A stretch of DNA of 64,000 nt, taken from positions 64,001 to 128,000 of IMG/VR virus record IMGVR_UViG_3300045988_177154. The stretch is one strand, 5' to 3'. Below, one piece after another: positions 1-60,949 of this stretch; within the stretch, counting starts at the first letter, position 1; every line of letters starts with the position of its first letter. The translations under genes and the position numbers were made by a program. The DNA is from a virus. The notes under the pieces were generated by a model. It was not told the origin of the DNA, did not search any database, and worked only from the letters and a program-made list of their open reading frames with translations.

Positions 1-43
1 TGAAGCTTTTCCAATTTCAAATGAATACATTAACCCTAAGGAA

Positions 44-259
44 ATGGACTCATTAACTATCAAAAAGAAACAAATAAATAAGTTGAGGAGCTTATATCCA
101 TTAGCTAAAATTGTTTCCATTGATGATGATTTAAAGAAAACTGAAGTTAGTTCAGATTTTCATTTACAGCCTAAATCTGAATTAGGCTTAACACATGAAG
201 ATTTAGTTATTTTAACTAATAAAATTAAAAAATACTTAGAACATAGAAAGGTATATTAA
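44..259 (+). CDS. hypothetical protein (may be the 3' part of an ORF entering from upstream)
   Basis: ORF-track ORF. The same frame stays open back to nt 2, so the true start may lie outside the window. The next gene starts 3 nt after its stop. Confidence 0.4.
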   Translation: MDSLTIKKKQINKLRSLYPLAKIVSIDDDLKKTEVSSDFHLQPKSELGLTHEDLVILTNKIKKYLEHRKVY

Positions 260-261
260 AA

Positions 262-7165: not shown

Positions 7166-7308
7166 GTTGCTTACATCTGTAACTTATTGTAATAATGAAT
7201 AAGTGAGTTGTAAGGTAATACCTCATGTAGAGGACGAACTCCTAATTCAACTTGAACCGTTGAATCAAGTACATTCGTTAGAAATGACACAATTTGACCA
7301 TTTCCTTT
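7166..7308 (-). ncRNA. predicted omega-RNA (reRNA) scaffold of TnpB element 1
   Basis: Overlaps the last ~137 nt of tnpB plus 5 nt. This exact interval is the part conserved (~80% by eye) in the non-coding stand-alone copy at 20353-20488. Confidence 0.55.
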
Positions 7309-8667
7309 AAGCTTATTTACTTTTTCCTTAATTTCTTTTTTATTTGATTTTGGTTTAACTCTTTTAGTCTTTGCCTTTTTTGGTAAAGATTTTTTGAGCT
7401 TAATATTAGTAGAACGAATCGCAATATTGATAGCAGCTAATAAATCTCTATCAATTTTACCAGTCGTAAATTCAATAGTTCTATCATTAACTACTCCTAT
7501 TTCTTTCGTTATTGGGTGCTCCTTACTAGTATTAAATGCAGAAACCTTTTTTACCTCAATTCCATACATAGTGGCTTTCTCTATAATTTTAGAATGAATT
7601 TGAGAATGATTCCATTTACCACCTTGTGAATTTAACCAAGATAAATCTTCAATATGAATTGTTTTACACTTCTGCTCTAATGCTAAATTTACAATTTCGT
7701 TTGACAAAAGCTTTGCTTGATAATCTTTTGTGTTAATAATTTTATTAGAAATATTTGAATAAAGATTTTTCCAAATTTCATATTTAGATTGATTTGTTAA
7801 CCTTAAAGCTTCATAAGATTTAAGTTTATCATATAAGATTTGTTTATTTTCATAAAGTTTATTGATTTTATATTCTGTTTCTTGGCTTCGTTTTGTGTTG
7901 ACAAATTCATTACTGAAATTACCTTTTCTATCAACAACAACAGAACTAAATAATTTAATTTTACCTATATCCACACCTAAGATTTTATCTTCTAACACAT
8001 AATCCCCCACTTCATATTCATAAGAGCAAATACCTATATATTGATTATCTCTTTTACGTTTAATAAATCTAGGCTTCGCAATTCTGCCTGTAAATCTTTC
8101 ATCTATACTACTTGGAAAGATTATTTCATATTCAATCCAATCTTTTTTGCTCACTTTTATTTCACAAATATTACCTTGTTTCATTCTGAATATTTGCTTT
8201 TCTGAAATAGTATAATCAAGATTGAATACAGCGCTTCGTGCTAATTCGGGTATGGAATTATTACGTTTAATATTGGCAATTCTACTTCTTGTTGGGTAAA
8301 GTTTTAATTTGTGTAATGAATTAAATAAATCTTCATTTATGTTAAAATCATTTTTAACTAATTGATTCCAAATGATGATTGCTTCTTGTTTTGACTTTAT
8401 TTCTCGTCTGATGTTTTCAAACAAGATATACGAGTGCCAGGTTTTATTATGCAACGGCCAGTCTTTTATTCGGAATTTAAGACTATCCCTCATATCCCTC
8501 CAAACATCGCCTCTGAGTTTAGATAAATCAATTTTATCCAAGAGAGCTCTTGTTTCATCATTAGAGAGAATAAAATTTAACTCATTTTGTAAGAAATCAT
8601 AAATAGGTATAAGTTCTGATGGCATATTTATATTAAAACTTTTCCAATGAACTTTTTTCTTTTTCAT
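7171..8667 (-). CDS. tnpB: TnpB-like RNA-guided nuclease (IS200/IS605 OrfB family), 498 aa
   Basis: RuvC-like motifs ILGVDIGKIK (D), KTIHIEDLSW (E) and DRDLLAAINIA (D). No CxxC zinc-finger cysteines between motifs II and III. No tnpA nearby. Own promoter TTGAAA-17-TATAAT upstream on the minus strand (~8705-8735). Confidence 0.85.
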   Translation of the reverse strand: MKKKKVHWKSFNINMPSELIPIYDFLQNELNFILSNDETRALLDKIDLSKLRGDVWRDMRDSLKFRIKDWPLHNKTWHSYILFENIRREIKSKQEAIIIWNQLVKNDFNINEDLFNSLHKLKLYPTRSRIANIKRNNSIPELARSAVFNLDYTISEKQIFRMKQGNICEIKVSKKDWIEYEIIFPSSIDERFTGRIAKPRFIKRKRDNQYIGICSYEYEVGDYVLEDKILGVDIGKIKLFSSVVVDRKGNFSNEFVNTKRSQETEYKINKLYENKQILYDKLKSYEALRLTNQSKYEIWKNLYSNISNKIINTKDYQAKLLSNEIVNLALEQKCKTIHIEDLSWLNSQGGKWNHSQIHSKIIEKATMYGIEVKKVSAFNTSKEHPITKEIGVVNDRTIEFTTGKIDRDLLAAINIAIRSTNIKLKKSLPKKAKTKRVKPKSNKKEIKEKVNKLKGNGQIVSFLTNVLDSTVQVELGVRPLHEVLPYNSLIHYYNKLQM

Positions 8668-8794
8668 TTTACTCCTTTTATGTTATTTATTGTTACTATT
8701 ATAACAAATCATCAGTTTATTTTCAATTAAAGTTAATCATAAAGTTATAATAATTTACAAGAAATATCTATAAAAATTATCTGCTTCTATTATT

Positions 8795-9145
8795 TTACCT
8801 CATAACAACTTCACAAATAATAACTTCTTCGCCATTATCAAAGTCAAAATCATCTTTGTATGGTAAGAATAAGTAAGAATCAGTACTATTATCGTAGTAA
8901 TATTGAGACTTCATATTGAATAGAATAATTAAGAGTTCTGTAATTTTATTCTTTGATTCATTTTGAATTTCAAGTTTGGATTGGTTTGTAACACCAATAT
9001 TATCAAAAGAGTAATTATAGATAGTAAAGTTAGAATGATGATTAACTTTATTTTTTAAGTATTCATAATTATCTTTATTGAAGTCTTTAATTTTAGATAG
9101 CGGAAAATTCAAGACTAAGTTTAATGTTTCTTCTTTAATTTTCAT
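8795..9145 (-). CDS. hypothetical small protein (intact paralog of pseudogene 6960-7165)
   Basis: Start set at the internal ATG 9145 (AAGAGGA RBS); overlaps the upstream gene's stop by 11 nt. 116 aa. Confidence 0.6.
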   Translation of the reverse strand: MKIKEETLNLVLNFPLSKIKDFNKDNYEYLKNKVNHHSNFTIYNYSFDNIGVTNQSKLEIQNESKNKITELLIILFNMKSQYYYDNSTDSYLFLPYKDDFDFDNGEEVIICEVVMR

Positions 9146-9749
9146 TATACCAATCCTCTTTAAAGTTATTTTCACCTTCACTAAATCTTACAGATTCAAA
9201 ATGTCCTTGAACGAGTTTTCTTACATAAAAATCATATTTATCCATAGGGAAGCTATTAACAGGTCGAACTACAAAACCTTCAATATCTTCAGTCAGATTA
9301 GCAGTAGCTTCTTTTACTACTTCATCAAATGTTCCAACCTTTGATAATTCTTTTACAATTGGGATTCCAAGTTCTTTAGCTCTTTTCTTAGTTGTTTCCC
9401 AATCTAAGATTAAATCATCTTCTTTAATTCCAAATAGCATATAATCAGATGGTAAATCATTATAAGGAACAGATTTTCTCCAATGAAGAAATTCTCCAAG
9501 TACAACTTCATTATCTTTTAATTTATCTTTAATTGGATAGTACCAATTGTTGATTGGATAAGTCCATTCTTTATTGTAATTATTGCCAGCTCTTGTAAAC
9601 CAAGTTTCTTTTCCTAAAGAAATATTAGAACCGTCCATTTTTTCAGTAGCAATTACTAAACCGTCATATCTATAATGATTTTTAAAGACATCATCATCTG
9701 TACCCTTTGACCCTTTCATATGAGGAGTTCTAGGAAATTTAAAAGTCAT
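9135..9749 (-). CDS. RNA ligase family protein (minimal nucleotidyltransferase domain)
   Basis: 204 aa. N-terminal FPRTPHMKGS and motif I ATEKMDGSN (KxDG), as in PF09414-type RNA ligases (from memory). Confidence 0.7.
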   Translation of the reverse strand: MTFKFPRTPHMKGSKGTDDDVFKNHYRYDGLVIATEKMDGSNISLGKETWFTRAGNNYNKEWTYPINNWYYPIKDKLKDNEVVLGEFLHWRKSVPYNDLPSDYMLFGIKEDDLILDWETTKKRAKELGIPIVKELSKVGTFDEVVKEATANLTEDIEGFVVRPVNSFPMDKYDFYVRKLVQGHFESVRFSEGENNFKEDWYNEN

Positions 9750-9765
9750 ATTTGTTCTCCTTTCG

Positions 9766-10017
9766 TTAATCTATATATGCTAAAACTTCTTTTACACTTT
9801 CAAATGTTTGTTCATCTTCGTGAGTTACTCCATTTTCTTCTGAGTGATAATTTCTAATTACTACAAAATATTTATCTTTTTCTGTAATTTCATAAGTTAC
9901 AATTTCAGAAGCGTAAAGTTGAATTAGTTCTAATTCATCACCTAAATCATCTAATCTAGTATATGATATTGAACTATTTTCTATTGCATCTTTCAATTCT
10001 TTTATTTTGTTACTCAT
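9766..10017 (-). CDS. hypothetical protein, paralog family D
   Basis: 83 aa. IKELKDAIE...YEITEKDKYFVVIRNYHSEENGVT...VKEVLAYID parallels the neighbouring 87-aa ORF. Confidence 0.6.
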   Translation of the reverse strand: MSNKIKELKDAIENSSISYTRLDDLGDELELIQLYASEIVTYEITEKDKYFVVIRNYHSEENGVTHEDEQTFESVKEVLAYID

Positions 10018-10029
10018 TTTGGCTTCTCC

Positions 10030-10293
10030 TTAGTAAATAAAATCTAAAACTTCTTCTAATGTATTAAATTTACTATTTCCCTCGATAGTTACTCCAGTTA
10101 CTTCTGAGTAAAACTTCTCAATTACAATATAACAATCATCTTTAACTGTAATTTCATATGTAAACTCATCAAGAGCTACATGATAGATTAAAACTAGTGT
10201 ATCTCCACAAACAGTAACAAGCTCATCGTCAACTGAGTGTCTTTCTATTGCTTCTTCTAGTTCCTTAATTTTTTCTTTAATGTTTTCATTCAT
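10030..10293 (-). CDS. hypothetical protein, paralog family D
   Basis: 87 aa. IKELEEAIE...YEITVKDDCYIVIEKFYSEVTGVT...LEEVLDFIY. Confidence 0.6.
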   Translation of the reverse strand: MNENIKEKIKELEEAIERHSVDDELVTVCGDTLVLIYHVALDEFTYEITVKDDCYIVIEKFYSEVTGVTIEGNSKFNTLEEVLDFIY

Positions 10294-32690: not shown

Positions 32691-33590
32691 ATGAATAAAA
32701 TTAAATTATTAAGTGTTTTAACTTTATCTACCGTAGTTTTGGGTGCCTGTTCTTTGTTACCTAAATCAACAGAAAATAAAACTGAAACAACTGAACAAGT
32801 AACAACTACTAGTAAAGAAGATTCAGTTAAAGAGAAAGTCACAAAGGATGCTACAGTTCTTTTAGATTCTGTCTTAACTACAGATAATGCTAAATTTAAG
32901 AAAGTTTATGGGGAAACCTATGACAAATGGACTGATGCAATTATTGCCGTTCAAACTAGTGAAAAAATTAAGGAAGATGGTCTTACTCCAGCTTCTGAAT
33001 ATTCTGTACAATGGGTAAAAGATTTTCCAATTGAAACACCAGAAGAAACAATTTCTAACTTCCTTAAAGTAAGACGAAATCTCTTTCAGAAAATTGTAAA
33101 TTACAATATTAAAGATGTTGTAATTGATGATTCGGGAAATACTGCAACTGTTACATTTACATCTAAGAAGTTACATTCTCTTGGTTTAGCCTCATCAGTA
33201 AGAACAGTTCTAACTGAACTAATTGGGGGAATTGATAACCTCGGTAAATATAACCAAGCAGGTTCTTCTGAAACCGTTAAACGTTATCAAAACTTACTTT
33301 CTTATTGGATTTTCCGTCACTTATACAAACATGACTTTGCCATTTACTCTAATGTTGATGCTAACTTATCTCATGTTCCATTTACAAAAGGTGAATTTGA
33401 CACTGAGATTAAACTCACAAAGGATAAAGATGGCAATTGGGTGATTTCTCAAGATGATTATAAGACTTTGCTATCAGAATTGGTAGATAGAACTGAAGGC
33501 TATGATACAATAGACCGTTCAGGACTTCCTAATAAGAAAGCAACTGACTCATCTGAAACATCTACAGACAAAGATAAATCAAAAATTTAA
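32691..33590 (+). CDS. lipoprotein
   Basis: 299 aa. Signal peptide with lipobox LSTVVLGAC; Ser/Thr/Lys-rich linker; AGGAG RBS. Confidence 0.75.
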   Translation: MNKIKLLSVLTLSTVVLGACSLLPKSTENKTETTEQVTTTSKEDSVKEKVTKDATVLLDSVLTTDNAKFKKVYGETYDKWTDAIIAVQTSEKIKEDGLTPASEYSVQWVKDFPIETPEETISNFLKVRRNLFQKIVNYNIKDVVIDDSGNTATVTFTSKKLHSLGLASSVRTVLTELIGGIDNLGKYNQAGSSETVKRYQNLLSYWIFRHLYKHDFAIYSNVDANLSHVPFTKGEFDTEIKLTKDKDGNWVISQDDYKTLLSELVDRTEGYDTIDRSGLPNKKATDSSETSTDKDKSKI

Positions 33591-33641
33591 TTTAAAAATT
33601 ATAGAGAGTAGAACATCTTAAAAGATGTTTCCTCTCACTTT

Positions 33642-33730
33642 GGAGCGGTACCCAAGTGGCTAAAAGGGGGCGGTCTTGAAAACCGTTAGGTCGTTAATTC
33701 GGCGCGTGGGTTCGAATCCCACCCGCTCCG
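33642..33730 (+). tRNA. tRNA-Ser (UGA)
   Basis: Acceptor GGAGCGG/CCGCTCC, loop CTTGAAA, long variable arm, T-loop TTCGAAT. Confidence 0.85.
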
Positions 33731-34577
33731 TTATATAGGAAGCTTGTAGTTGTCTGTGACCATCAAGCACAAACCGGCGTTACTCAAAAGGGAACGTTTG
33801 TAGTAATGTGAAAAGCATTACGATAGGTTTGGTACTATAATTAAATATAAATCCAAAAGTGCATTTTTCCGTTGGTTTGATGCCTGGCGTTATACAGTTC
33901 GCTTGCAGGTGTAAGAATGAACGAATGATTCAGAAAATAACTTGTTATTGGACGGAATCATCACGTTGGGAATTGAAAACTTAGTCGTGATGCTATAGTA
34001 ATATAGCTATAAAACGGATATGAATGGCTGGTTCGCTAAAGACTAGAATAGGAAATCTAAACAGTCCTTACGGTTGTGTGGTAACAGTCCACACCAATTC
34101 ATAAAGGTTATTGTCGGCCAACAATAATCGAATTGTCGCATAATAAATCTTGACTATATTAAGTTGTAGGTGGTGTCCTACTTTATGGCGGAATAAGTTC
34201 ATCGGCTTAACGCATGATAGCATGACATTCAAAAGATGTTCTGAGAGGCGATTGCTTCAAAGTGTTATCAGTACTTATATAGGTAGAGATTAGTGCAAGT
34301 CTAGGATTCTAATACAGAGAACGAATTGCATATGAGTGTAATTCCAAGCTCAAGTGTTGAATGAGGTTGATGTCATGAAAGTGACTATAAGAATTTGCTA
34401 GACAAACGCTGTAAGAAATCCTCACGCAGTAAAAGATATGGTATCTTTGATGATAAAGATATTAAATTTACTGACCAAGATGTGGTGAACCTTTGGGGTA
34501 TCAATCCTCACTTCGTGACTGAATATGGACGTTTAATTGTAGTTGTCAGTAAAAACTAAATCTGGCCCTATATTTTA
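33731..34577 (+). ncRNA. candidate giant structured ncRNA (~847 nt; GOLLD/ROOL-class candidate)
   Basis: 847 nt flanked by tRNA-Ser and tRNA-Thr with no ORF of 60 aa or more on either strand. Markedly higher GC than coding DNA. Many short complementary segments. Confidence 0.45.
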
Positions 34578-34650
34578 GCTGGAGTAGCTCAATTGGTAGA
34601 GCACCCGCCTTGTAAGCGGAAGGTTGCAGGTTCGAAGCCTGTCTCCAGCA
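34578..34650 (+). tRNA. tRNA-Thr (UGU)
   Basis: Acceptor GCTGGAG/CTCCAGC, loop CTTGTAA, T-loop TTCGAAG. Confidence 0.85.
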
Positions 34651-35040
34651 TACTCTATAATAGATGTAATTATAAGAGTTCCTGAAAAATCAATGACTCA
34701 TGTAGGTTGTCATGAATTTACATGAATAGATTTCAATGTTGGTTTATCTGTAATCCGAAGCATGAATAAAACAGATTGTGGTCTTTGCTTTACCATATTA
34801 TTGTAAAGGTCAAAGCTTATCAGAAGTAATTCTGTAAAAAGTTGTTTCGATTGGAATTAGTGACTCCAATCTTTATCCATGAAATAACAAAAAATCATAA
34901 CTATTAAAGTTATGTGGCAGTTACGTTAGAGTATTGCTTGAAGTGTTGAAAATTAGAAGTTAGTGCCGAATTTCTAATCGTACTTCATTGATAGGGTTTT
35001 CGGTGGACACCGCGGGGCATAAGAAAACCGGCCAGTGAAA
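34651..35040 (+). ncRNA. ORF-free structured spacer sharing a motif block with 34255-34330
   Basis: GCTTGAAGTGTTG..ATTAGAAGTTAGTGCCGAATTTCTAATCGTAC (34935-34990) resembles GCTTCAAAGTGTT..AGATTAGTGCAAGTCTAGGATTCTAATAC (34255-34315). Confidence 0.35.
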
Positions 35041-35125
35041 TAAATGGTGTAATTAAAGAAATTCTAAGATATGGCTTATAATTTCAAAAATTACTTAAAT
35101 TTTTTAAAAAATTTTAATTTTGATA

Positions 35126-35153
35126 TTGACAATAACTCAAATTTTGATATAAT
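35126..35153 (+). promoter_or_regulatory. internal promoter of the RNA island
   Basis: TTGACA 35126-35131, 16 nt, TGATATAAT ending at 35153; long A/T UP-like tract upstream. Confidence 0.6.
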
Positions 35154-35171
35154 AGATACATAAAAACTTAT

Positions 35172-35243
35172 AGGTTCTTAGTTTACCGAGAAAAATAAGG
35201 GTCTCCAAAACCTTAGAAATCAGTGCAAGTCTGATAGAGCCTG
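35172..35243 (+). tRNA. tRNA-Trp (CCA), non-canonical D and T loops
   Basis: Acceptor AGGTTCT/AGAGCCT, D stem GTTT/AAAT, anticodon stem-loop AGGGT-CTCCAAA-ACCTT, T arm ATCAG-TGCAAGT-CTGAT (the T-loop lacks the TTC consensus). Confidence 0.55.
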
Positions 35244-35287
35244 TTACAAATAAAAATTATTAAAAGAAAAAAGGAAGGTACGTAATC

Positions 35288-35410
35288 ATGACAACATTTA
35301 CAGTCGCACAAGATATTCATATGATTATTGATATGCAGCCGGCAGCCGGTACTGTAGTGCTTCGTCAAGCAAAAAATACCTTACAATCTAATAGTAGGAT
35401 TATAAGTTAG
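35288..35410 (+). CDS. possible 39-aa leader-type ORF
   Basis: AAGGAAGG RBS 8 nt upstream of the ATG. MTTFTVAQDIHMIIDMQPAAGTVVLRQAKNTLQSNSRIIS. Its 3' end overlaps the first copy of an 11-nt repeat that takes part in alternative hairpins. Confidence 0.3.
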   Translation: MTTFTVAQDIHMIIDMQPAAGTVVLRQAKNTLQSNSRIIS

Positions 35411-35439
35411 CATTCAGCTCAGCTTAATAAATCAAACTA

Positions 35440-35469
35440 AGATTGTAAGAAATTCCTTACAATCTTTTT
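35440..35469 (+). terminator. terminator hairpin with a competing upstream partner (attenuator-like)
   Basis: AGATTGTAAG (35440-35449) pairs with CTTACAATCT (within 35455-35465) followed by TTTTC. An identical CCTTACAATCT at 35379-35389 could pair with the same segment instead. Confidence 0.45.
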
Positions 35470-35479
35470 CTAGCTATAT

Positions 35480-35550
35480 GGGGCATTAGTTTAATGGGAA
35501 AACACTACCCTTGCAAGGTAACGTTAGGAGTTCGATTCTCCTATGCTCCA
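35480..35550 (+). tRNA. tRNA-Ala (UGC)
   Basis: Acceptor GGGGCAT/ATGCTCC with G3-U70, loop CTTGCAA, T arm AGGAG-TTCGATT-CTCCT. Confidence 0.8.
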
Positions 35551-35575
35551 TTTCCATTAAGGAAATCATCATTAA

Positions 35576-35646
35576 GTGGACATAGTATAAGGGTAGTATG
35601 ACGGGCTTCCAACCCGTTGGTGCGAGTTCGAATCTCGTTGTCCATA
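35576..35646 (+). tRNA. tRNA-Gly (UCC)
   Basis: Acceptor GTGGACA/TGTCCAT, anticodon stem-loop ACGGG-CTTCCAA-CCCGT, T-loop TTCGAAT. Confidence 0.8.
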
Positions 35647-35649
35647 TAA

Positions 35650-35720
35650 GGCGAGGTAGTGAAAAGGTATAACGTTGGGCTCATAACCCAAAATTGTCGG
35701 TTCGAATCCGACCTTCGCAA
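35650..35720 (+). tRNA. tRNA-Met (CAU), initiator-like features
   Basis: Loop CTCATAA. Three G-C pairs closing the anticodon stem (TTGGG/CCCAA). Position 1-72 unpaired (G x A). Poorly formed D stem. Confidence 0.7.
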
Positions 35721-35730
35721 TTTTAAATTA

Positions 35731-35804
35731 CTAGGTGTAGCGCAGTTTGGTAGCGCACGTGCTTTGGGAGCACGGGGCCGCAGGTTCGAATCCTGTCACC
35801 TAGA
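35731..35804 (+). tRNA. tRNA-Pro (UGG)
   Basis: Acceptor CTAGGTG/CACCTAG, anticodon stem-loop CGTGC-TTTGGGA-GCACG. Confidence 0.85.
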
Positions 35805-35845
35805 TAAAGCAATGATGAATTGCTTAAAGGAAAGGTTTTTATATT

Positions 35846-36025
35846 ATGACTAATTTGAAAAAATATATCTTATCTTTGATTATAGCATTTGTAATTACCA
35901 TTCCTATTGCAAGTGTTATTCTTACAATTATTTATGATACAGTAATCTTCTTGATTATCTCAACAATTATTTATTTTATTGTAATGACTTTAGTTATTAA
36001 AGGATTTAATTATGATAAAGATTAG
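35846..36025 (+). CDS. small membrane protein (59 aa, two hydrophobic segments) embedded in the tRNA array
   Basis: AAAGGAAAGG RBS. MTNLKKYILSLIIAFVITIPIASVILTIIYDTVIFLIISTIIYFIVMTLVIKGFNYDKD. The stop abuts tRNA-Ile. Confidence 0.5.
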   Translation: MTNLKKYILSLIIAFVITIPIASVILTIIYDTVIFLIISTIIYFIVMTLVIKGFNYDKD

Positions 36026-36096
36026 TGTCCGATGGTGAAATGGTATCACAAGCTGCTGATAACGGCTAGTTACAAGTTCAATTCTTGTTCGGACAA
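36026..36096 (+). tRNA. tRNA-Ile (GAU)
   Basis: Acceptor TGTCCGA/TCGGACA, anticodon stem-loop AGCTG-CTGATAA-CGGCT, T arm ACAAG-TTCAATT-CTTGT. Confidence 0.8.
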
Positions 36097-36107
36097 TACA
36101 ATATAAA

Positions 36108-36179
36108 TGCTTCTTAGTTTAATGGATATGACGCCGGACTACGAATCCGGAGATAAAGGTTCAATTCCTTTAGGAGCAA
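36108..36179 (+). tRNA. tRNA-Arg (ACG)
   Basis: Acceptor TGCTTCT/AGGAGCA, anticodon stem-loop CCGGA-CTACGAA-TCCGG. Confidence 0.8.
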
Positions 36180-36184
36180 TATAT

Positions 36185-36258
36185 TGGAGTATAGACAAAT
36201 TGGTAAAGTCACTGGACTTTGAATCCAGGTTTTGCTGGTTCGAATCCAGCTACTCCAG
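36185..36258 (+). tRNA. tRNA-Gln (UUG)
   Basis: Acceptor TGGAGTA/TACTCCA, anticodon stem-loop CTGGA-CTTTGAA-TCCAG. Confidence 0.85.
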
Positions 36259-36270
36259 TTAATAAAATAT

Positions 36271-36343
36271 GGCTTCGTAGCAAAGTGGTTATTGCGCTGG
36301 CTTGTCACGCCAGAGGTCGGGGGTTCGATTCCCCTCGGGGCCG
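36271..36343 (+). tRNA. tRNA-Asp (GUC)
   Basis: Acceptor GGCTTCG/CGGGGCC, anticodon stem-loop CTGGC-TTGTCAC-GCCAG. Confidence 0.85.
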
Positions 36344-36755
36344 TAACCCTGCCTAGGGGTAATACATAGTAGTAATACTATGAAAGGAAGTTTGACAAAC
36401 TTTCGCCTGTCTTATGATGGGTTAACTAGGCAATACATTTTCAAGTTGCTCAAAAGGCACATTATATAAGCATAATCAGTGAGAAACCTTGAGATAGTTT
36501 CAGGCATGGAATTGCTAACTTCTTGTGCTAGCTAATGGAAGTTAGATGTGCGAAATATAAGGAGAATGTAAGGATTAACAGTTAGAGTCTTAGCGGATAA
36601 TAGCGTAATCCATAACAATATTCATATGGTTGGCAAATCATTGTAAGTATTGTTGAATTTCAAAATCTTAGCGGATAGAGAAGTAATAAATTGGCGAGGA
36701 GCATTCCTTAGAACAAAATTTTATGGAACTCCGAGGCATAGCTCGTCAATGTCAA
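36344..36755 (+). ncRNA. ORF-free structured spacer (5' part of a possible ~836-nt RNA with a nested tRNA-like element)
   Basis: 412 nt with no ORF. Internal repeat ATCTTAGCGGATA at ~36585 and ~36665. Hairpins such as CTAACTTC...GAAGTTAG. Confidence 0.35.
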
Positions 36756-36829
36756 AGGTGATTAGCTCATTTGGTAGAGCATATATTTTGAGGAATATAG
36801 GGTAATGGGTTCGATTCCCATATTACTAA
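36756..36829 (+). tRNA. tRNA-like element with an 8-nt anticodon loop (identity undetermined)
   Basis: Canonical D arm GCTCATTTGGTAGAGC and T arm ATGGG-TTCGATT-CCCAT. Anticodon stem TATAT/ATATA encloses TTTGAGGA (8 nt). Acceptor AGGTGAT/ATTACTA is weak (1-72 mismatch, two G-U pairs). Confidence 0.5.
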
Positions 36830-37179
36830 CGAAGCGAAAGTCTATGTCAGACTTAGAAAAAAAGAGCATTAACTCCATACAGATTTATTCTGAATATGGA
36901 AACAATAGAAGCTCGCAAGCAACTATTGTTTTAATCCAATGATTTCCGCAAACTTGAGCCGTACAACTTAGGTCTAACGAAATCGGGTTGAGTATCGCTA
37001 AGTCTTAATGGTAAAAGTATCGCCAGCAGGTTTGTAACTGCGAAAGATGAATGCTTAAGAGATACGATTAGGAATAATCGTGGATAAACAACTAAACAAT
37101 AAGGTTGTTAAAGACTCTTATTTAACGCTATAATCTCAGGCCGTTAACTTCTTATAGGGGAAGAGAAATCCTATTTTAT
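36830..37179 (+). ncRNA. ORF-free structured spacer (3' part of the possible ~836-nt RNA)
   Basis: 350 nt with no ORF. GNRA-type hairpins (GCGAAAG, CTGCGAAAGATG) and several 6-9 bp complementary pairs. Confidence 0.35.
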
Positions 37180-37251
37180 GCTCTGTTAGCTCAGGGGGAG
37201 AGCACTAGTCTTACAAACTAGATGTCATTGGTTCAAATCCAATACAGAGCA
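37180..37251 (+). tRNA. tRNA-Val (UAC)
   Basis: Acceptor GCTCTGT/ACAGAGC, anticodon stem-loop CTAGT-CTTACAA-ACTAG. Confidence 0.85.
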
Positions 37252-37306
37252 TTTCCTACATAAAACGCAAAATCGTTTATTGTAGTGCTTACGATGTAAG
37301 CATCTA

Positions 37307-37389
37307 GCGCCCGTGGTGGAATGGCAGACACGCTAGGCTTAGACCCTAGTGTCCGAAAGGACGTGAGAGTTCGAGTCTCTCCGAGTGCA
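37307..37389 (+). tRNA. tRNA-Leu (UAG)
   Basis: Acceptor GCGCCCG/CGAGTGC (one C x A mismatch), anticodon stem-loop CTAGG-CTTAGAC-CCTAG, long variable arm. Confidence 0.75.
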
Positions 37390-37390
37390 T

Positions 37391-37464
37391 CTTGTCTTAG
37401 TGTTAATAGGTTAGCATATCTCACTGTGACTGAGAAGGTACGGGTTCGAGTCCCGTAGGCATGA
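37391..37464 (+). tRNA. tRNA-His (GUG)
   Basis: Acceptor CTTGTCT/AGGCATG (one U x U mismatch), anticodon stem-loop TCTCA-CTGTGAC-TGAGA, T arm ACGGG-TTCGAGT-CCCGT. No encoded G-1. Confidence 0.65.
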
Positions 37465-37515
37465 TTAGGAAAGGGAACAATAATTGTTCTCTTTATTTAT
37501 TTTTAGAGGTGTTTA

Positions 37516-49553: not shown

Positions 49554-50645
49554 TTGGAAAAAAGCAGAAAAGAAAAAACGACAGATAAAAAATTGCTTCT
49601 AAAGCGATTTCTCATAGTACTTTTAATCATTCTATCGTGTGGAATGGCTTATTCTTATTACTTAGTAAAAAATGCTGAATCTAAATTGGAAGTAACTTAT
49701 AAACCAATAGAAAATCATGAAGAAAATAAAGTTATCGAAGCTACTAAATCAATGTCTATTCTTTTAATGGGAGTAGATACTGGAAATAGTGAAAGAACAG
49801 AAACATGGGCTGGTAATAGTGATAGCATGCTTGTTATGACTATCAATCCTAAAACAAAGAAAACAACAATTACAAGCTTAGAACGAGATATACTTACAGA
49901 AATTGAACATGATGGAGAAACAATTCAAGCTAAATTAAATGCAGCTTATCAAATGGGTGGAGTTGATTTAGCAATTCCTACTATTGAAAAAATGCTAAAT
50001 ATGAAGTTTGACCATTACTTGTTAATCAATATGAATGGCTTAGCTAAATTAGTCGATGCTGTTGGTGGAGTTGATGTTGAAAATAAATTAGGATTTCCTA
50101 TTACTATCCAAGACCAAGAAGTAGATAATCAAATTGTAATTGGAACAGGTAAACAACACTTAAATGGCGAGGAAGCATTAGTTTATTCAAGAATGAGATA
50201 CCAAGACCCAGAGGGTGATTATGGACGACAAAAACGCCAACGTGAAGTTATCCAAGCTATTATTTCTAAAATGATTTCATTTGATAGCTTAGGTAATTAT
50301 TCTGAAATTCTTGAAGCAATAAGTACTAATATTCAAACAGATATTCCGTTAAATTCAAGCAATGTGATGAATTTATTAGGCTATAAGAGTAGCTTGAACA
50401 ATATTGAACAATTCCAACTTGAAGGTGATGATGCTACTATTGCAGGCATTAGTTATCAAATCGCTAAAGCAGATAGTTTATTAGAAATTCAAAATAGAAT
50501 TAGAGAAGAACTTGGCGAAGATAAAGTAACTAAATTAAAGACAAATGCAGTTATAAATGGAAGTACAAGTCATAAAGATTCAGATGAACCTAAAAGTGTA
50601 AATAATGATGATGATTCATATTTTACTTACAAGAAAGAAGAATAA
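49554..50645 (+). CDS. LytR-CpsA-Psr (LCP) family protein
   Basis: 363 aa, TTG start after AAAGGAG. N-terminal TM. SILLMGVDTG...NSDSMLVMTINPKTKKTTITSLERD...RMRYQDPEGDYGRQKRQREV are LCP motifs. Confidence 0.8.
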   Translation: MEKSRKEKTTDKKLLLKRFLIVLLIILSCGMAYSYYLVKNAESKLEVTYKPIENHEENKVIEATKSMSILLMGVDTGNSERTETWAGNSDSMLVMTINPKTKKTTITSLERDILTEIEHDGETIQAKLNAAYQMGGVDLAIPTIEKMLNMKFDHYLLINMNGLAKLVDAVGGVDVENKLGFPITIQDQEVDNQIVIGTGKQHLNGEEALVYSRMRYQDPEGDYGRQKRQREVIQAIISKMISFDSLGNYSEILEAISTNIQTDIPLNSSNVMNLLGYKSSLNNIEQFQLEGDDATIAGISYQIAKADSLLEIQNRIREELGEDKVTKLKTNAVINGSTSHKDSDEPKSVNNDDDSYFTYKKEE

Positions 50646-53172: not shown

Positions 53173-54351
53173 ATGAAAACTATGAACTTATTAGAACAAT
53201 ACAAACAGTTACAGAAAACAAACTTATCAAAAGATGGCGATATGCAGCTAGGTATCGCTTACAAAAAAGAAAATGGATTGACTACAGTAAAATACCTTCA
53301 TGGTGGAGTAGATTTTAATAATCCTTTATATAGACAAGCTCGTGGATTAACACTAGACTTGAATGGAAAAGTAATTTTACGAGGATTTGAAAAATTCTTT
53401 AACTGGAAACAATTAACAGAATATGAAAATTATTCAAAGGAATTTAAAAAAGTATACTCAGAAGTAGAATATATCCCTAATCATAAATATAATTTCTATG
53501 AAAAGTTGGATGGTTCACTAATTCTCTTAGCAGAGTATAAGAATCGTTTTGTAGCTGCAACTACTTCATCATCTTATAATCCATATACTCAAACTGCTCT
53601 TAAATGGTTCCACCAAAAAGAAAACCATAGAGAATTGCTTAACTATCTAAGAGCTAAAAATATTACATTAGCATTTGAATACATTTCAATCAAAAACCCA
53701 ATCGTAATTCATTATACTCATACTGATTACGTTTTAATTGGAGCTCATGAAAACAAAACAGGTAAACGCTACTCACAAGAACAATTAAACAAAATTGCTA
53801 AACGTTTTGGATTTAACCAACCTAAAGTTTTCCAATATACTTTTGAAGAAATTCAAGAAGTTATGAGCAATGCTAAAGATATTGAAGGCTTCGTGCTAGA
53901 AAATACTTATGGAAAACTTATTAAATTTAAAACTGACGAATGGTTCCGCTTGAAAGATTACTACGGTATCTTCTTCGGACCACTAACAAATTCAAAAATT
54001 TCTACAATTATTGAAAGCTATCTTGCTGATGAAATTGATGACCTAATCGCTGTTGAACAACAACACGAACATTACAAACATTTAGGATTGCTTGACACTA
54101 CTCTAACTCATGCTAAATATTTTGAAGATGAAGTTCTAAAAGCTTATAAAGTTACAAAACATTTATCAGACAAAGAACTTGGCTTGAATTGGAAAGATTA
54201 TATGGAATCATATGCTTTGCCATGTGTATTTAATATAAGAAAAGGTGTTGATTGGAGAATACAAAGAAAAGGTGAAGGCCCAGTTACATTAGCATTATTA
54301 GTTCAAACAAAAGTAAAACAAGAAAGAGAGGAAGAATTATTAAATGGATAA
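53173..54351 (+). CDS. T4 RnlA-like RNA ligase 1
   Basis: 392 aa. ARGLTLDLNGKVILRGFEKFFNW parallels T4 Rnl1 CRGIMFEMDG...RPMEKFFNL. Motif I YEKLDGSL (KxDG). Confidence 0.75.
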   Translation: MKTMNLLEQYKQLQKTNLSKDGDMQLGIAYKKENGLTTVKYLHGGVDFNNPLYRQARGLTLDLNGKVILRGFEKFFNWKQLTEYENYSKEFKKVYSEVEYIPNHKYNFYEKLDGSLILLAEYKNRFVAATTSSSYNPYTQTALKWFHQKENHRELLNYLRAKNITLAFEYISIKNPIVIHYTHTDYVLIGAHENKTGKRYSQEQLNKIAKRFGFNQPKVFQYTFEEIQEVMSNAKDIEGFVLENTYGKLIKFKTDEWFRLKDYYGIFFGPLTNSKISTIIESYLADEIDDLIAVEQQHEHYKHLGLLDTTLTHAKYFEDEVLKAYKVTKHLSDKELGLNWKDYMESYALPCVFNIRKGVDWRIQRKGEGPVTLALLVQTKVKQEREEELLNG

Positions 54352-55048: not shown

Positions 55049-56263
55049 ATGAAAGATAATAAAACTGAAATTGAACAACTATCTCGGAGAGAAGTTTTTA
55101 AAATGACTCAAGAAACAAAACGAAAAAAACGTAGTAAAAGAACAAGACTTCTAATTACACTTATTACTGTTGGAATTATTGGTGGAATTGCTATTGAGGG
55201 TGTAAATCTTTTATCAATCTATAATAGTAGTAAGGCTTGGCAAAAACAATCTAAAACGCCTATTGCTTCATTAGAACCTTATATGCTCTATCTAAGCCAA
55301 GAGGATATGGATAATCTTTCAGAATATACTTCAAGATTAAGTGTTATCTATGATAGTAATAAAGGTGTATTTGCTGAGGGAGTTACTCAAAAGGATTTAG
55401 ATGAGTTACAAAAAGAATTTGAAAAATTAGCGCCCTCACTCAAAGAAAAAGAAGAAGCTAAATATAAATTAGTAAGTAATATGTGGAGTATGAAATCTGA
55501 CTATGATGCAATGTGGAATAAAGAACATACTGCATTATTAGACTCTACTACACCTAAAACAGTAAGTGATTATGTGGATAAACACTGGAAAATCATGGAT
55601 TCATATTTAGAAGATGATTCTATTCAAAAAGAATGGCTGATTAACACTTATAATGAATTAAATAAATTAAAAGATGATACTGCTACAATCTCTGCTTTGT
55701 TCAATATGTTTAATTCAACTTTTGATGTATCTGACAAAAAGATTATTGTTAAGAAAGATGTAAGTTCATCATCTATTGCAGAATGGAGTAAAGTTAAAGC
55801 AAATCTTAACTTCAGTTGGCCTATCGTTTCTAATTACATGACTGAAATTATTAACAACTCAACTAAGATTTTAGAAAAACATGATAAAGCTATCAATCTT
55901 TATACAGAATATAGTGGAGCTGCAGAAAGTAAAAATGCTTTTGACACTTGGAGTAAAACATATTCACAATATAATAACAGTATGATTAACTTGCCGAACT
56001 TTGTTGGAAAAGACATTGAAACTGTAAAATCTTGGGCTAAAGAAAATGGAATTACACTCATTATCAATAAAGTAGAAGATTCTGCTAAGAAAGATACAGT
56101 AATTTCACAAAATCCAACTAATTCTGATTATGCTAAAATTCTAAAAGGTAGTGCATTTACTGTTAATATTGCTAAAGAAAAAACAACTACTACTGAAACA
56201 AAAGATAAAGACAAAGAAAATAAAAAAGAAACAACAGAAGCAACAACTAAGGAGAATAACTAA
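55049..56263 (+). CDS. membrane-anchored protein with C-terminal PASTA domain
   Basis: 404 aa. Basic stretch plus TM LLITLITVGIIGGIAI. C-terminal NFVGKDIETVKSWAKENGITLIINKVEDSAKKDTVISQNP...FTVNIAK looks like a PASTA repeat. Confidence 0.6.
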   Translation: MKDNKTEIEQLSRREVFKMTQETKRKKRSKRTRLLITLITVGIIGGIAIEGVNLLSIYNSSKAWQKQSKTPIASLEPYMLYLSQEDMDNLSEYTSRLSVIYDSNKGVFAEGVTQKDLDELQKEFEKLAPSLKEKEEAKYKLVSNMWSMKSDYDAMWNKEHTALLDSTTPKTVSDYVDKHWKIMDSYLEDDSIQKEWLINTYNELNKLKDDTATISALFNMFNSTFDVSDKKIIVKKDVSSSSIAEWSKVKANLNFSWPIVSNYMTEIINNSTKILEKHDKAINLYTEYSGAAESKNAFDTWSKTYSQYNNSMINLPNFVGKDIETVKSWAKENGITLIINKVEDSAKKDTVISQNPTNSDYAKILKGSAFTVNIAKEKTTTTETKDKDKENKKETTEATTKENN

Positions 56264-58497
56264 TGAAGATTTTAAAAAAGATTATGAAATTTATTTTAAA
56301 GCTCTTTAAATGGAGTTTAATATTAGGATTTATCCTTGCTCTTGTTGGTTTCTTAGCTGGAACAATTTATAGTGCAGGTGTAATCAAACAAACTCCTAAA
56401 ATTACTGAAGAAATGATTACAAAAGCAACAGGTGGAACTACAAATATGTACGATTCAACTGGCCAAGTAATCTATTCTGATACTGAGCATAGACGAGATT
56501 ATATTCGTTATGATGAAATTCCAAATAAATATATTGAGCTATTACTTGCAACTGAAAATAAGAATTATTGGAATGAAAAAGGTTGGTCATTTGAAGCTAT
56601 CCTAGCTGCAATTAAAAGCAAAGGTGCTCGTGGTGGTTCTACTATTGAACAACAACTTATTAAAAATCTTGTTTTCTCAAGTGACATTAAAGACAGAACG
56701 ATTGACCGTAAGATTAAAGAAATCTGGCTCGCTTCACAAATGGATTTAAACTTTGACAAGAAACAAATCTTGGAATGGTATATTAACTTAATCAATATGG
56801 GTGAGGGCTCTTATGGAGCAAATACTATTGCTATTACTTATTACGGTCAAAGTTTGAAAGATTTAACTGGTGATGATGCAGTAACATTATCTAAATTAGC
56901 TACAATCGCTGGATTAGGACAAGCTCCATCAGCTTACAATCTATATGATAACCCCGAATTAGTAGAAGAACGAAGAAATATTGTTTTACTAAGTGCTCTT
57001 AATAATAATAAGATTACTGAAGAACAATATGAAGAAGCTAAAAAAGTTCCAATTCAAGAGGGCTTGAAAGAGCGTTATTGGAGAAATGGAACAGTGTTAG
57101 CACAAACAAAAGAACATAATGCTTATGTAACTTCTGCTCTTAAACAAGTTCAAGAATTGGGCTATGATTTAGAAAAAACACCAATGCAAATCTATACTGC
57201 TTTAGACCCAAATGTTAACTCACAAGTAAAATCTACCTTTGATAATTTTTCTGGTTATAAAGATGATGAAGAACAAATGGCAGCTACTGTTATTGACCCT
57301 AATACAGGTTATGTATTAGCACAATATGGGGGAAGAAATACAGAAGCATTTGGTTTGAATAGAGCAACACAACAAACACGTAGTTCAGGTTCGTCTATTA
57401 AACCATTTGAAGATTATGGTCCCGCTATTGAATATAATGGACTAGGAACAAATTATATTTTAGATTCAAGTAATTATCTTTACCCAGGTACAAATGTAGT
57501 AGCACATAACTTTGGTGGCGCAACTTATGGAAATGTAACTATGGCATTCGCTCTTAAAATGTCATTAAACACTCCAGCTATTCGTATCTTGAATAATGTT
57601 GTTGGTTCAAACAATGCTAAGAAATTCCTAGCTGGAATGAACTTAGATACAGAAGAAACCTATGGAGATTCAACAGCTTTAGGATTGAATGTTTCAACTG
57701 AACAAATGGCAGCTGCTTCTGCTACTCTTGCTAATAAAGGAATGTATAAGAAACCACAATATATTACTAAATTGGTATTTAATGATGGTTCAGAAAAAGA
57801 AATTAAATTTAATCCAACAAGAGCTATGAAAGAAAGTACTGCATATATCTTATTGAAGATGATGGCAGAAGTCCCTAAACCTACTGGTACAGCTACTGAT
57901 GCTATTATCAATCACTATAAGAGTTATTCTGTTAAAACAGGTACTGTAGGATACGGTCCCGAAGTTGGTTGGGCAACAAGTAATGATGCTTCTGATACTT
58001 GGGTAGTTGGAACAACTAAGAATGTTTCTATTGCTATTTGGAATGGCTATGATTCCCCTAATGAATACGGACATAGTGTTGATGTTTATGCTCACTCACA
58101 ACAACGAGTATTTAAACAATTGATGTTAGCAATGAATGAAGGCAAAGATGTTAGCGATTGGGAAAAACCAGATACTGTAACAAGTTCTGACCCTAACAAC
58201 ATGAAACCAACTGATGTTGATGTTAACTCATCTTATATTGATAAATTCCCAGAGCCATATTTCACATTATCAGACACTAGTGTTAATAATAGTATCAATG
58301 CTTATTACAAAAAAGATAAATTATTAAAAGTGGAAGATGCTGGAGTAGAAAAATACAAAGTTCCAAGTGATTATAAAGAAGTTATTGATTGGCAATCAAA
58401 AGCAAATGCAGATATGCTAAGATTATTCAATGCTTATCCAAACAATCCTTTATACCCAGCACTTATCAACAATAATGCTTATTATCAAGAACCATAA
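56263..58497 (+). CDS. class A penicillin-binding protein (glycosyltransferase GT51 + transpeptidase)
   Basis: 744 aa. GT51 motifs ATENKNYWNEKG, GGSTIEQQLIKN, RKIKEIWLA. Transpeptidase motifs SSIKP (SxxK), SLN (SxN), KTGT. Confidence 0.85.
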   Translation: MKILKKIMKFILKLFKWSLILGFILALVGFLAGTIYSAGVIKQTPKITEEMITKATGGTTNMYDSTGQVIYSDTEHRRDYIRYDEIPNKYIELLLATENKNYWNEKGWSFEAILAAIKSKGARGGSTIEQQLIKNLVFSSDIKDRTIDRKIKEIWLASQMDLNFDKKQILEWYINLINMGEGSYGANTIAITYYGQSLKDLTGDDAVTLSKLATIAGLGQAPSAYNLYDNPELVEERRNIVLLSALNNNKITEEQYEEAKKVPIQEGLKERYWRNGTVLAQTKEHNAYVTSALKQVQELGYDLEKTPMQIYTALDPNVNSQVKSTFDNFSGYKDDEEQMAATVIDPNTGYVLAQYGGRNTEAFGLNRATQQTRSSGSSIKPFEDYGPAIEYNGLGTNYILDSSNYLYPGTNVVAHNFGGATYGNVTMAFALKMSLNTPAIRILNNVVGSNNAKKFLAGMNLDTEETYGDSTALGLNVSTEQMAAASATLANKGMYKKPQYITKLVFNDGSEKEIKFNPTRAMKESTAYILLKMMAEVPKPTGTATDAIINHYKSYSVKTGTVGYGPEVGWATSNDASDTWVVGTTKNVSIAIWNGYDSPNEYGHSVDVYAHSQQRVFKQLMLAMNEGKDVSDWEKPDTVTSSDPNNMKPTDVDVNSSYIDKFPEPYFTLSDTSVNNSINAYYKKDKLLKVEDAGVEKYKVPSDYKEVIDWQSKANADMLRLFNAYPNNPLYPALINNNAYYQEP

Positions 58498-59563: not shown

Positions 59564-60949
59564 ATAATGTGTGATAACTGTAACAAAAAATCATAAAATC
59601 CAATAAAAAAGGAGGTGAAATTATGTACTTAACTGAAAAAGAGATTATCTATTCAACTGATGAAAGATTTAACTTGATTAAAGATTTGTGCCATTTAAGC
59701 AAAAATCTTTATAATGCAAGTCTTTATGATGTTAGACAATATTACTTTGAAACTAAATCATACAGAACTTGGCAATCACAAGTGCCAATTTTTACTAAAA
59801 CTAAAAATACTGATTATTATGCACTTCAATCTCATGTTGCTAGTGAAGTGATAAAGCAAGTTGGTAGACAATTTATTAGTTTTTTCAATAATAAATCTAA
59901 CAAAAAGAAACGAATCCCTAAATACAAAGATAAAAATGGTTATAACGTTGTTACTTTCAATAATCGTGCAATTTCTAGGAAGATTGAGTTTGATGAGGAT
60001 AAACAACTTTATACTCATACTCTATGTAAGAAAAGTTATAATCTTAAAATTCAATCAACTAAATCAAATATTAAAATGGTAAAATTTGTTTATGATGAAG
60101 TTAATGACTTAATCAAGTGTTACAAGATTTATGAAGTTGAACAACCTAAGTTGAAAAATGATAATTCACGGTATTTCTCAATTGACCCAGGGTTAAATAA
60201 TATTGTTGCTATTTACAATAACATTGGAATCAGACCGTTATTATACAATGGCAGACCAATCAAAAGTATTAACCAATATTACAATAAAACAACTGCTAAA
60301 TTGAGGTCAGAATTGCCCACTAATATTAAATCATCTAAAAGATTAAAACAACTATCTTTAAAGAGAAATAACAAAATTGATTATGAGATGCACAAAATTT
60401 CAACTCATATTATCAATGAAGCCGTAAAAAACAACATTTCAAAAATCTTTATTGGCAATAACATTGGTTGGAAAAATGAAATTAACATTGGCAGAAGAAA
60501 TAACCAAAATTTTGTTAATATTCCTCATACAAAACTATTCAATCAATTGCTATATAAAGGGTCATTAAATGACATTGAAGTTATCTTTACAGAAGAGAGT
60601 TACACTTCAAGAGCAAGTTTCTTTGATAAAGATGAATTACCTATTTATGATGAAACTAGCAAGTATAAATTCTCTGGTAGAAGAATAAAACGTGGCTTAT
60701 ATAAAGATAGTAAAGGCAATATATGGAATGCTGATTTAAATGGAGCAGCCAATATTATGAGAAAATGTTCAGACAAAGCCTATAAAGGTATAAGAAAAAC
60801 CAAAGAAATGATGCGACAGCCAATTCTTATAACATTATAAGTAGCACTCAATTTAATATAATGAGAGTGTAGAGGCATTTGTAGGTATGCCATTATGAGA
60901 AGTTAAATCTTAATTTAACGAGTCTATAAAAATCAAATCATATTTGATT
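59564..60949 (+). mobile_element. TnpB-only IS1341-type element 2 (tentative ends)
   Basis: TTGAT at 59559-59563 precedes a 59-nt leader to tnpB. Downstream similarity to the solo remnant at 32616-32652 ends at TTTGATT (60943-60949). No tnpA. Confidence 0.4.
59623..60840 (+). CDS. tnpB: TnpB (IS200/IS605 OrfB, IS1341 group), 405 aa
   Basis: FSIDPGLNNIVAI (RuvC I), IFIGNNIGWKNEINIGRRNNQNFVNIPH, EESYTSRASF (RuvC II region), NADLNGAANIMRK (RuvC III). AAGGAGG RBS. Confidence 0.85.
   Translation: MYLTEKEIIYSTDERFNLIKDLCHLSKNLYNASLYDVRQYYFETKSYRTWQSQVPIFTKTKNTDYYALQSHVASEVIKQVGRQFISFFNNKSNKKKRIPKYKDKNGYNVVTFNNRAISRKIEFDEDKQLYTHTLCKKSYNLKIQSTKSNIKMVKFVYDEVNDLIKCYKIYEVEQPKLKNDNSRYFSIDPGLNNIVAIYNNIGIRPLLYNGRPIKSINQYYNKTTAKLRSELPTNIKSSKRLKQLSLKRNNKIDYEMHKISTHIINEAVKNNISKIFIGNNIGWKNEINIGRRNNQNFVNIPHTKLFNQLLYKGSLNDIEVIFTEESYTSRASFFDKDELPIYDETSKYKFSGRRIKRGLYKDSKGNIWNADLNGAANIMRKCSDKAYKGIRKTKEMMRQPILITL

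Follow-up and report, generated by a model that had tools for sequence, protein, structure and literature searches.

To our knowledge, few bacterial or phage RNAs without a known function are larger than ROOL and GOLLD. The cages that these two RNAs form are hollow by cryo-electron microscopy (cryo-EM), with the variable linkers directed inward, and the contents or role of these cages is an open question. ROOL RNA is represented by Rfam family RF03087 (Weinberg et al., 2017; PMC5737381), and cryo-EM structures have been reported (PMC12286853); a three-dimensional ROOL structure is available as PDB 9MDS. ROOL assembles into hexamers or octamers whose interior holds the disordered linker, and transfer RNAs (tRNAs) are found in some GOLLD linkers (PMC12286853; PMC12990946). 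The purpose of the cages, as proposed by those who solved the structures, may be to enclose their linkers or other molecules, and the same authors drew a 50S subunit inside the ROOL cage (PMC12286853; PMC12990946). Here we describe an RNA of ~847 nucleotides (nt) encoded in the IMG/VR virus record IMGVR_UViG_3300045988_177154, of which a stretch of 64,000 nt (positions 64,001 to 128,000 of the record; hereinafter referred to as the window) was analyzed. Taken as a whole, the evidence indicates that this RNA is probably a distant, expanded variant of ROOL.

The RNA fills the spacer between the genes for tRNA-Ser(UGA) and tRNA-Thr(UGU), inside an array of 22 tRNA genes that are all encoded on the + strand (30478-37465). 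The borders of this spacer had been given in a preliminary description made from the sequence, and they were reproduced by ARAGORN and Rfam. That description had also noted the lack of any open reading frame (ORF) of 60 amino acids (aa) or more and an enrichment in G+C. Both held on re-examination: the longest ORFs comprised 54 aa on either strand, and the GC fraction of the spacer was 0.365, exceeding the 0.296 of the whole window and the 0.319 of the neighboring ORF. Positions within the spacer are numbered so that region position p equals window position 33731+p, and the features are listed in Table 1.

A total of 16 distinct copies of the RNA were collected from metagenomes and IMG/VR by exact-protein look-up and motif scans, belonging to clades that were 97-100% and ~91% identical. 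The IMG/VR scan with the motif GGTA(N)TCAATCC..CTGAATAT returned three close relatives only, plus chance matches without ROOL, and the metagenome motif scan returned the same lineage only, at 91% identity or more. A motif scan of species-representative genomes gave no match. The RNA was better conserved than its neighbors (98% vs 93%). On the + strand, its minimum free energy (MFE) z-score was -2.7 to -3.6 relative to dinucleotide shuffles.

The consensus structure computed by RNAalifold from the alignment of the 16 sequences (A2) contained 258 base pairs in 39 helices, and 99.8% of the 3,870 pair cells held standard pairs. Compensatory two-sided changes were found at 16 pairs, compared with 0-2 when the 3' partners were slid by 1-3 columns, and none of 500 shuffles matched the observed values for pairing and compensation. 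The relatives thereby provide much stronger evidence than the single sequence. GNRA loops, which the preliminary description had pointed out, are present as a GUAA loop at 33998-34001 and a GAAA loop at 34377-34380. When the alignment was read on the - strand, pairing dropped to 85.9%, because 538 of the cells are G-U. Within the 97-100% clade alone, almost all substitutions preserved the predicted pairs, which is an RNA-like pattern. The spacer is almost certainly a conserved, strand-specific, base-paired structured RNA on the + strand.

In E-value mode, the Rfam ROOL model gave a local match at 34291-34527 (26.2 bits, E=0.0058, model positions 185-523) that included the conserved strings UCAAUCC and GUGACUGAAUAU. 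For reference, 22 true ROOLs were collected from IMG/VR, and the 12 that were scanned gave 275-337 Rfam bits. The OLE, raiA, HEARO and group I/II intron models of Rfam gave only noise in the spacer (group I intron, 13.7 bits, E=0.67-1.5). Of the Rfam models that the preliminary description had named for such a search, ROOL gave a match below threshold, and GOLLD, HEARO, OLE and raiA gave none. A sequence-only ROOL profile (nhmmer) gave marginal matches, including one at 33978-34015.

Two covariance models representing parts of ROOL were then built from 18 and 14 true ROOLs, respectively, without the target sequence. R1 covers the ROOL central module (Rfam model ~186-345) and R2 the ROOL 3' module. 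R1 matched domain A of the target over the full model with 38.2 bits (E=8.7e-8), while the next best match in the window scored 15.1 bits and 97 kb of unrelated phage DNA reached 14.5 bits at most. The R2 match to the 3' module scored 25.1 bits (E=5.8e-6), with the window's next best at 12.1 bits; the E-values of these custom models are approximate, although the distance from noise in bit score is clear. R1 gave 36-37 bits on both clades of the target and 61-109 bits on true ROOLs, and R2 gave 86-107 bits on true ROOLs. The two matches were collinear with the ROOL order and both lay on the + strand.

The helix layout was also compared by eye with the consensus structure line of Rfam ROOL. As in ROOL, a terminal helix P1 closes the whole RNA; it starts 2 nt after tRNA-Ser and ends 4 nt before tRNA-Thr, and it has 7 bp compared with ~16 bp in ROOL. 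The 5' hairpin following 'AA' matches ROOL model positions 25-58 in position and shape. The next element is a 6-bp stem around a hairpin cluster, for which the ROOL counterpart is cacacc/ggugug. In the target, the two hairpins of this cluster (region positions 45-67 and 68-94) have loops AAAA and GAAAA, and compensatory pairs were found at 76/86 and 77/85. A long-range helix formed by region positions 103-129 and 787-812 (3' strand at 34518-34543) carries a 5' AA opposite a 3' GAAUA, the asymmetric loop present at ROOL model 169-190. This helix contained a compensatory change at 123/796, and wobble-compatible changes were observed elsewhere in P1 and helices 7-9.

Like the ROOL central module, domain A has two nested helices, a hairpin with a GNRA loop, and UAUAA. 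In the target, an outer helix is combined with an inner helix that bears two hairpins, and a GUGAUG junction, the hairpin with the GUAA loop and UAUAA complete the domain; compensatory pairs were identified in helices 10, 12, 13 and 14. Helix 17 stands in place of the GCccaa/auggGU GAAA helix that surrounds the linker in ROOL. Tether 2, which leads into the 3' module, ends in ACUGACCAAG, similar to UCUGAAUG of ROOL in the R2 alignment. The ROOL 3' module comprises GUGAAA-UU, a hairpin with a GUAAUCAAUCC loop, GUG..CUGAAUAU and a terminal hairpin, and R2 recovered this module in the target. There, GGUGAAC-UU is followed by a hairpin with a UAUCAAU loop (34494-34510; region positions 763-779), GUG and ACU-GAAUA-UGGA, after which the module continues with the 3' strand of the long-range helix and the beginning of the 3' hairpin. 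The likeness extends to GUGAA-UU, to the hairpin after it, whose UCAAUCC-type loop is complementary to UGAU in the junction, to GUG-CUGAAUAU, and to the last hairpin before P1, which sits where ROOL has the GGGcGAAGgCCC hairpin. The UAUCAAU loop is complementary to an invariant UGAU at region positions 257-260, which parallels the UUGA/UCAA pseudoknot of ROOL. Occurrence in phage DNA and location in a tRNA array are further shared features. Judged from these sequence and structure matches, the RNA is very likely homologous to ROOL. The proposal in the preliminary description of a giant noncoding RNA of the GOLLD/ROOL class can accordingly be kept as to a structured RNA and, through R1, R2 and the helix mapping, as to a relationship with ROOL, and not as to GOLLD.

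In addition, at least 77 ordinary ROOLs (IMG/VR loci L084-L162, on phage contigs of 30-60 kb) carry the GGUAUCAAUCC loop variant of the target, which lacks one base relative to the Rfam consensus GGUAAUCAAUCC. Since it is common to these ordinary ROOLs, the variant is not special to the expanded form.

Table 1. Coordinates of the ROOL-like RNA, its parts, the flanking tRNA genes and a further gene group in the window.
Feature	Window position	Region position	Strand	Basis or remarks
tRNA-Ser(UGA)	33641-33730		+	ARAGORN 33641-33731; Rfam tRNA 33642-33730, 56.5 bits; discriminator G33730
Whole ROOL-like RNA, ~847 nt	33731-34577		+	16-variant alignment A2
P1, 5' strand AUAUAGG	33733-33739	2-8	+	Helix 1; pairs with 34567-34573
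5' hairpin after 'AA'	33742-33768	11-37	+	Helices 2 and 3; invariant, no covariation
5' multi-helix domain, 6-bp stem CAAACC/GGUUUG around two hairpins	33770-33831	39-100	+	Helices 4-6
Long-range helix, 5' strand: 13 bp, AUAAA bulge, UCCA, AA, AGU	33834-33860		+	Helices 7-9
Domain A, central module	33856-34025	Helices at 131-295	+	Model R1
Linker-closing helix, 5' strand GGUUCGCUA	34030-34038	299-307	+	Helix 17; pairs with 34483-34491 (752-760)
Hypervariable tether 1	34039-34067	308-336	+	35% inter-clade divergence
Conserved 347-nt insert	34068-34414	337-683	+	7-bp closing helix 34068-34074/34408-34414
Hypervariable tether 2	34415-34482	684-751	+	34% inter-clade divergence, indels
3' module	34470-34560		+	Model R2; overlaps Rfam ROOL local match 34291-34527
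3' hairpin immediately before P1 3' strand	34545-34566	814-835	+	Helix 39
P1, 3' strand CCUAUAU	34567-34573	836-842	+	RNAalifold consensus
tRNA-Thr(UGU)	34578-34650		+	ARAGORN; Rfam 70.1 bits
RNA ligase and cell-wall gene group	53173-54351; 49554-50645; 55049-58497

The target also differs from ROOL in size. The 22 sampled ROOLs measured 558-651 nt, so that the target has ~250 nt extra over a normal ROOL. The gap between the R1 and R2 matches was 444 nt in the target compared with 39-85 nt in 30 ordinary ROOLs, and the interval from AGUAGC to GUGAAA was 57-91 nt in 19 of 22 further ROOLs, namely those in which the motif search was unambiguous. Where ROOL has a short, unstructured and non-conserved linker (given as ~50 nt or as 50-90 nt, and disordered in cryo-EM), the target thus has 444 nt with a folded domain, and it is quite likely that the insertion sits at the ROOL linker position. 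Divergence between the clades was 8.7% in the insert, 5-6% in the core and 34-35% in the tethers.

The insert is predicted to consist of two hairpins (region positions 345-363 and 364-404, the latter with a GGCC loop), a multi-branch domain (407-565) and domain D (568-672). Five compensatory pairs were found in it (377/396, 497/505, 518/523, 599/606 and 642/653). Rfam searched with the insert alone at E<=10 returned no family, and an nhmmer search of 512 kb of other phage loci and of the masked window, with the insert as query, returned no match. As to internal duplication, neither the 5' half and the insert nor domains A and D aligned better than shuffles. Ribosomal RNA expansion segments and intervening sequences offer an analogy, in that there, too, a conserved core accommodates a large folded insertion, specific to the lineage, at a peripheral loop; this analogy is architectural only, with no homology and no sign of excision in the target.

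Domain D (34299-34403) bears some resemblance to the ROOL central module, with a UUGAUG junction, a GAAA hairpin and UAUAAG, and the Rfam ROOL model aligned here. A first reading based on that alignment placed a 440-nt insertion after the long-range helix and took domain D as the ROOL central module. It was dropped because R1 gives domain A 38 bits and domain D only 8.7 bits. The Rfam alignment is therefore considered partly misplaced, its central-module segment being the one in domain D (34310-34407).

The hairpin at 34095-34135 in the insert has an invariant loop, CGGCCA (34115-34120), with the palindrome GGCC at 34116-34119. Speculatively, this loop is a candidate self-complementary kissing loop that might provide an inter-subunit contact replacing the lost 3' domain.

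Several observations weigh against assignment to ROOL or against the model of the RNA outlined below. The gathering-threshold scan of Rfam left the spacer RNA without any match (ROOL cut-off 99.1 bits). The target lacks the GGAUAC loop and the third 5' hairpin, having two hairpins where ROOL has three, and domain A lacks the ACAAUAGACG and AAUgCCAAUAA junctions. In both the Rfam and R2 alignments, the 71-nt two-hairpin 3' domain of ROOL (model ~440-510) is cut to 3 nt. The first 130 nt correspond to ROOL by shape alone; the ROOL 5' domain, which MAFFT could not align even among true ROOLs, is too poorly alignable to model. For the linker-closing helix 17, four one-sided wobble-compatible changes and no compensatory change were observed. 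Moreover, the homologues found all belong to one phage lineage, with identities of 91% or more; the covariation therefore derives from few events, and many helices are invariant. Finally, a closed cage may not form if the missing 3' domain carries inter-subunit contacts. The RNA was classed as a variant rather than an ordinary ROOL because it fails the Rfam threshold and lacks three regular ROOL features, namely a short unstructured linker, the two-hairpin domain on the 3' side and the GGAUAC hairpin on the 5' side.

Among the other explanations, an origin of the conservation in a small protein gene or a non-functional spacer is very improbable. Two 54-aa ORFs are present, but in close relatives nearly all of the small ORFs checked were broken by stops or a frameshift (for the 54-aa ORF of the minus strand, in one variant only), substitutions keep base pairs and not codons, and the region is more conserved than its surroundings, as given above. 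A conserved small-protein ORF was the contrary case raised in the preliminary description, and the relatives do not bear it out. The size of ~850 nt and the tRNA-array context would also fit a member of the GOLLD family. This identity was refuted by the Rfam scans, since a GOLLD search of 33500-34800 at E<=10 gave no match while the scan detects a true GOLLD elsewhere in the window (see below).

It is also improbable that the RNA represents a new large class unrelated to ROOL, in which the shared short motifs (the GNRA hairpin plus UAUAA, the UCAAUCC loop and the GAAUA bulge) arose by convergence or chance. The wide margin by which the RNA misses the Rfam ROOL threshold, the 5' 590 nt that gave no ROOL match in the Rfam scan, the marginal result of the sequence-only profile and the absence of several conserved ROOL motifs are in line with such a class. 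On the other hand, two independent ROOL sub-models are clear outliers in the right order and on the right strand, the helices follow each other as in ROOL, with P1 and the unusual AA/GAAUA long-range helix among them, and the genomic niche is shared with ROOL. The preliminary description had allowed for a new class as an alternative; the extra ~250 nt are better accounted for as a structured insertion at the ROOL linker. Somewhat less improbable, but still unlikely, is a composite in which the ROOL-like shell RNA serves as a carrier or processing scaffold for an independent 347-nt RNA that is excised or acts alone, in the manner of rRNA intervening sequences or of the tRNAs within GOLLD. The insert is closed by its own helix, flanked by hypervariable tethers on either side and about as conserved as the core, and apart from the weak resemblance of domain D it is unlike ROOL parts. 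However, no tRNA-like, ribozyme or other Rfam signature was found in or beside the insert, no standalone copy occurred in the loci searched, and nothing points to cleavage sites.

For the expanded ROOL variant, the following biogenesis can be proposed. The RNA would be co-transcribed with the tRNA operon from upstream consensus promoters. Its 5' end would be set by RNase Z, cutting after G33730 on the 3' side of tRNA-Ser, since this tRNA has no encoded CCA. Its 3' end would be set by RNase P, cutting before G34578 on the 5' side of tRNA-Thr. The released RNA would fold in a ROOL-like manner and self-assemble into a homo-oligomeric shell of the ROOL type. As the ROOL linker points into the cage lumen, the insert would be held in the interior as a covalently tethered RNA payload or scaffold, like the tRNAs in some GOLLD linkers. 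Loss of the 71-nt 3' domain may alter cage stoichiometry or closure, because that domain may carry contacts between subunits. By analogy with the described structures, it is possible, although somewhat doubtful, that the target forms a cage with the inserted domain in its lumen. More tentatively still, it might represent the first ROOL-type RNA whose lumen-facing linker has turned into a conserved 347-nt folded domain, each subunit of the nanocage bringing its own tethered payload. If so, eight copies would amount to ~3.5 kb and ~1.2 MDa, by our estimate roughly the mass of a 50S subunit, and the business end of ROOL and GOLLD cages would be their interior content.

A ROOL framework that is still recognizable while its linker became a conserved folded domain can be regarded as a natural experiment on cage function, and the conservation of the insert suggests selection on interior content. 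Kretsch et al. gathered ROOLs by cmsearch at E<1e-5; with only 26 bits against Rfam ROOL, the target would be absent from any set collected in this way. Searches at the Rfam threshold thus miss diverged members of the ROOL family.

A GOLLD RNA (RF02032) was identified at 36689-37142, in the tRNA array that also harbors the ROOL-like RNA and ~2 kb downstream of the latter, with 156.3 bits against the model of the conserved 3' domain (gathering score 150); the preliminary description had overlooked it. With this match, one phage tRNA operon can be seen to hold both a ROOL-type and a GOLLD RNA. The GOLLD fills the spacer between tRNA-Asp and tRNA-Val (36345-37178) and contains a tRNA-like gene at 36756-36830, to which ARAGORN assigned a 4-base 'tgag' anticodon and Rfam tRNA gave 46.1 bits. 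Like GOLLD, in particular its members with an embedded tRNA, the ROOL-like RNA is a phage RNA of very large size encoded among tRNA genes, and it has a folded element in the linker, which is lumen-facing in GOLLD. It differs in that there is no match in sequence or structure, and its insert is a 347-nt multi-helix domain and not a tRNA. In a sister strain (contig L006), the segment corresponding to window positions 36270-37252 (L006:5501-5945) has ~300 nt between tRNA-Asp and tRNA-Val with no GOLLD match, and the ROOL-like RNA is retained at L006:2703-3544. GOLLD is therefore variable and dispensable in the sister strain, and the ROOL-like RNA was present in all relatives seen.

Other ORF-poor spacers of the array (31156-31661, 34651-35170 and 35245-35478) had MFE z-scores of -2.2, -2.8 and -4.5, respectively, and none of the three had an Rfam match at the gathering threshold.

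Perfect (12/12) sigma-70-type promoters were found at 30284-30312, 30423-30451 and 35126-35153, and a terminator-like hairpin at 37470-37494, after the last tRNA of the array. The three promoters and the hairpin frame the tRNA array, which suggests that there are two transcription units, a first that includes the ROOL-like RNA and a second that includes GOLLD. In the promoter and terminator search, neither type of signal adjoined the ROOL-like RNA itself.

The source genome is phage-like, with a size of 260-325 kb. An identical segment occurs on an ENA contig of 324,989 bp, and three IMG/VR genomes, of 262, 281 and 315 kb, are close relatives. Genes around the RNA match PHROGs. Among 50,697 GenBank phages, no match was obtained by distant-mode blastn with the RNA region or by megablast with its 10-kb context.

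Directly upstream of tRNA-Ser, in the middle of the array, an ORF of 299 aa (32691-33590) encodes a protein with a lipoprotein-like N-terminus and a weak DUF5105 match. Versions of this protein that are ~70% identical are encoded beside different tRNAs in other phage contigs, and no such RNA was found downstream of the gene in these relatives. In one distant relative (contig L047; 299-aa protein 67% identical), the R1 search of the locus gave no match. The tRNA array of L047 includes a transfer-messenger RNA gene (L047:7094-7469), and two spacers of ~1 kb each (8018-9122 and 9197-10161) showed no Rfam family.

Two ORFs of the TnpB/IS605 type, with OrfB_IS605 and Cas12f1-like TNB domains, were located at 7171-8667 (-) and 59623-60840 (+); a TnpB scan of species-representative genomes found no relative. 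The contig also encodes a T4 Rnl1-type RNA ligase, of a tRNA-repair enzyme family, and a CobS-like ATPase. Further, it carries a set of cell-wall genes that is unusual for a phage, coding for a LytR-CpsA-Psr protein, a PASTA-domain protein and a PBP1A-like transglycosylase/transpeptidase (Table 1).

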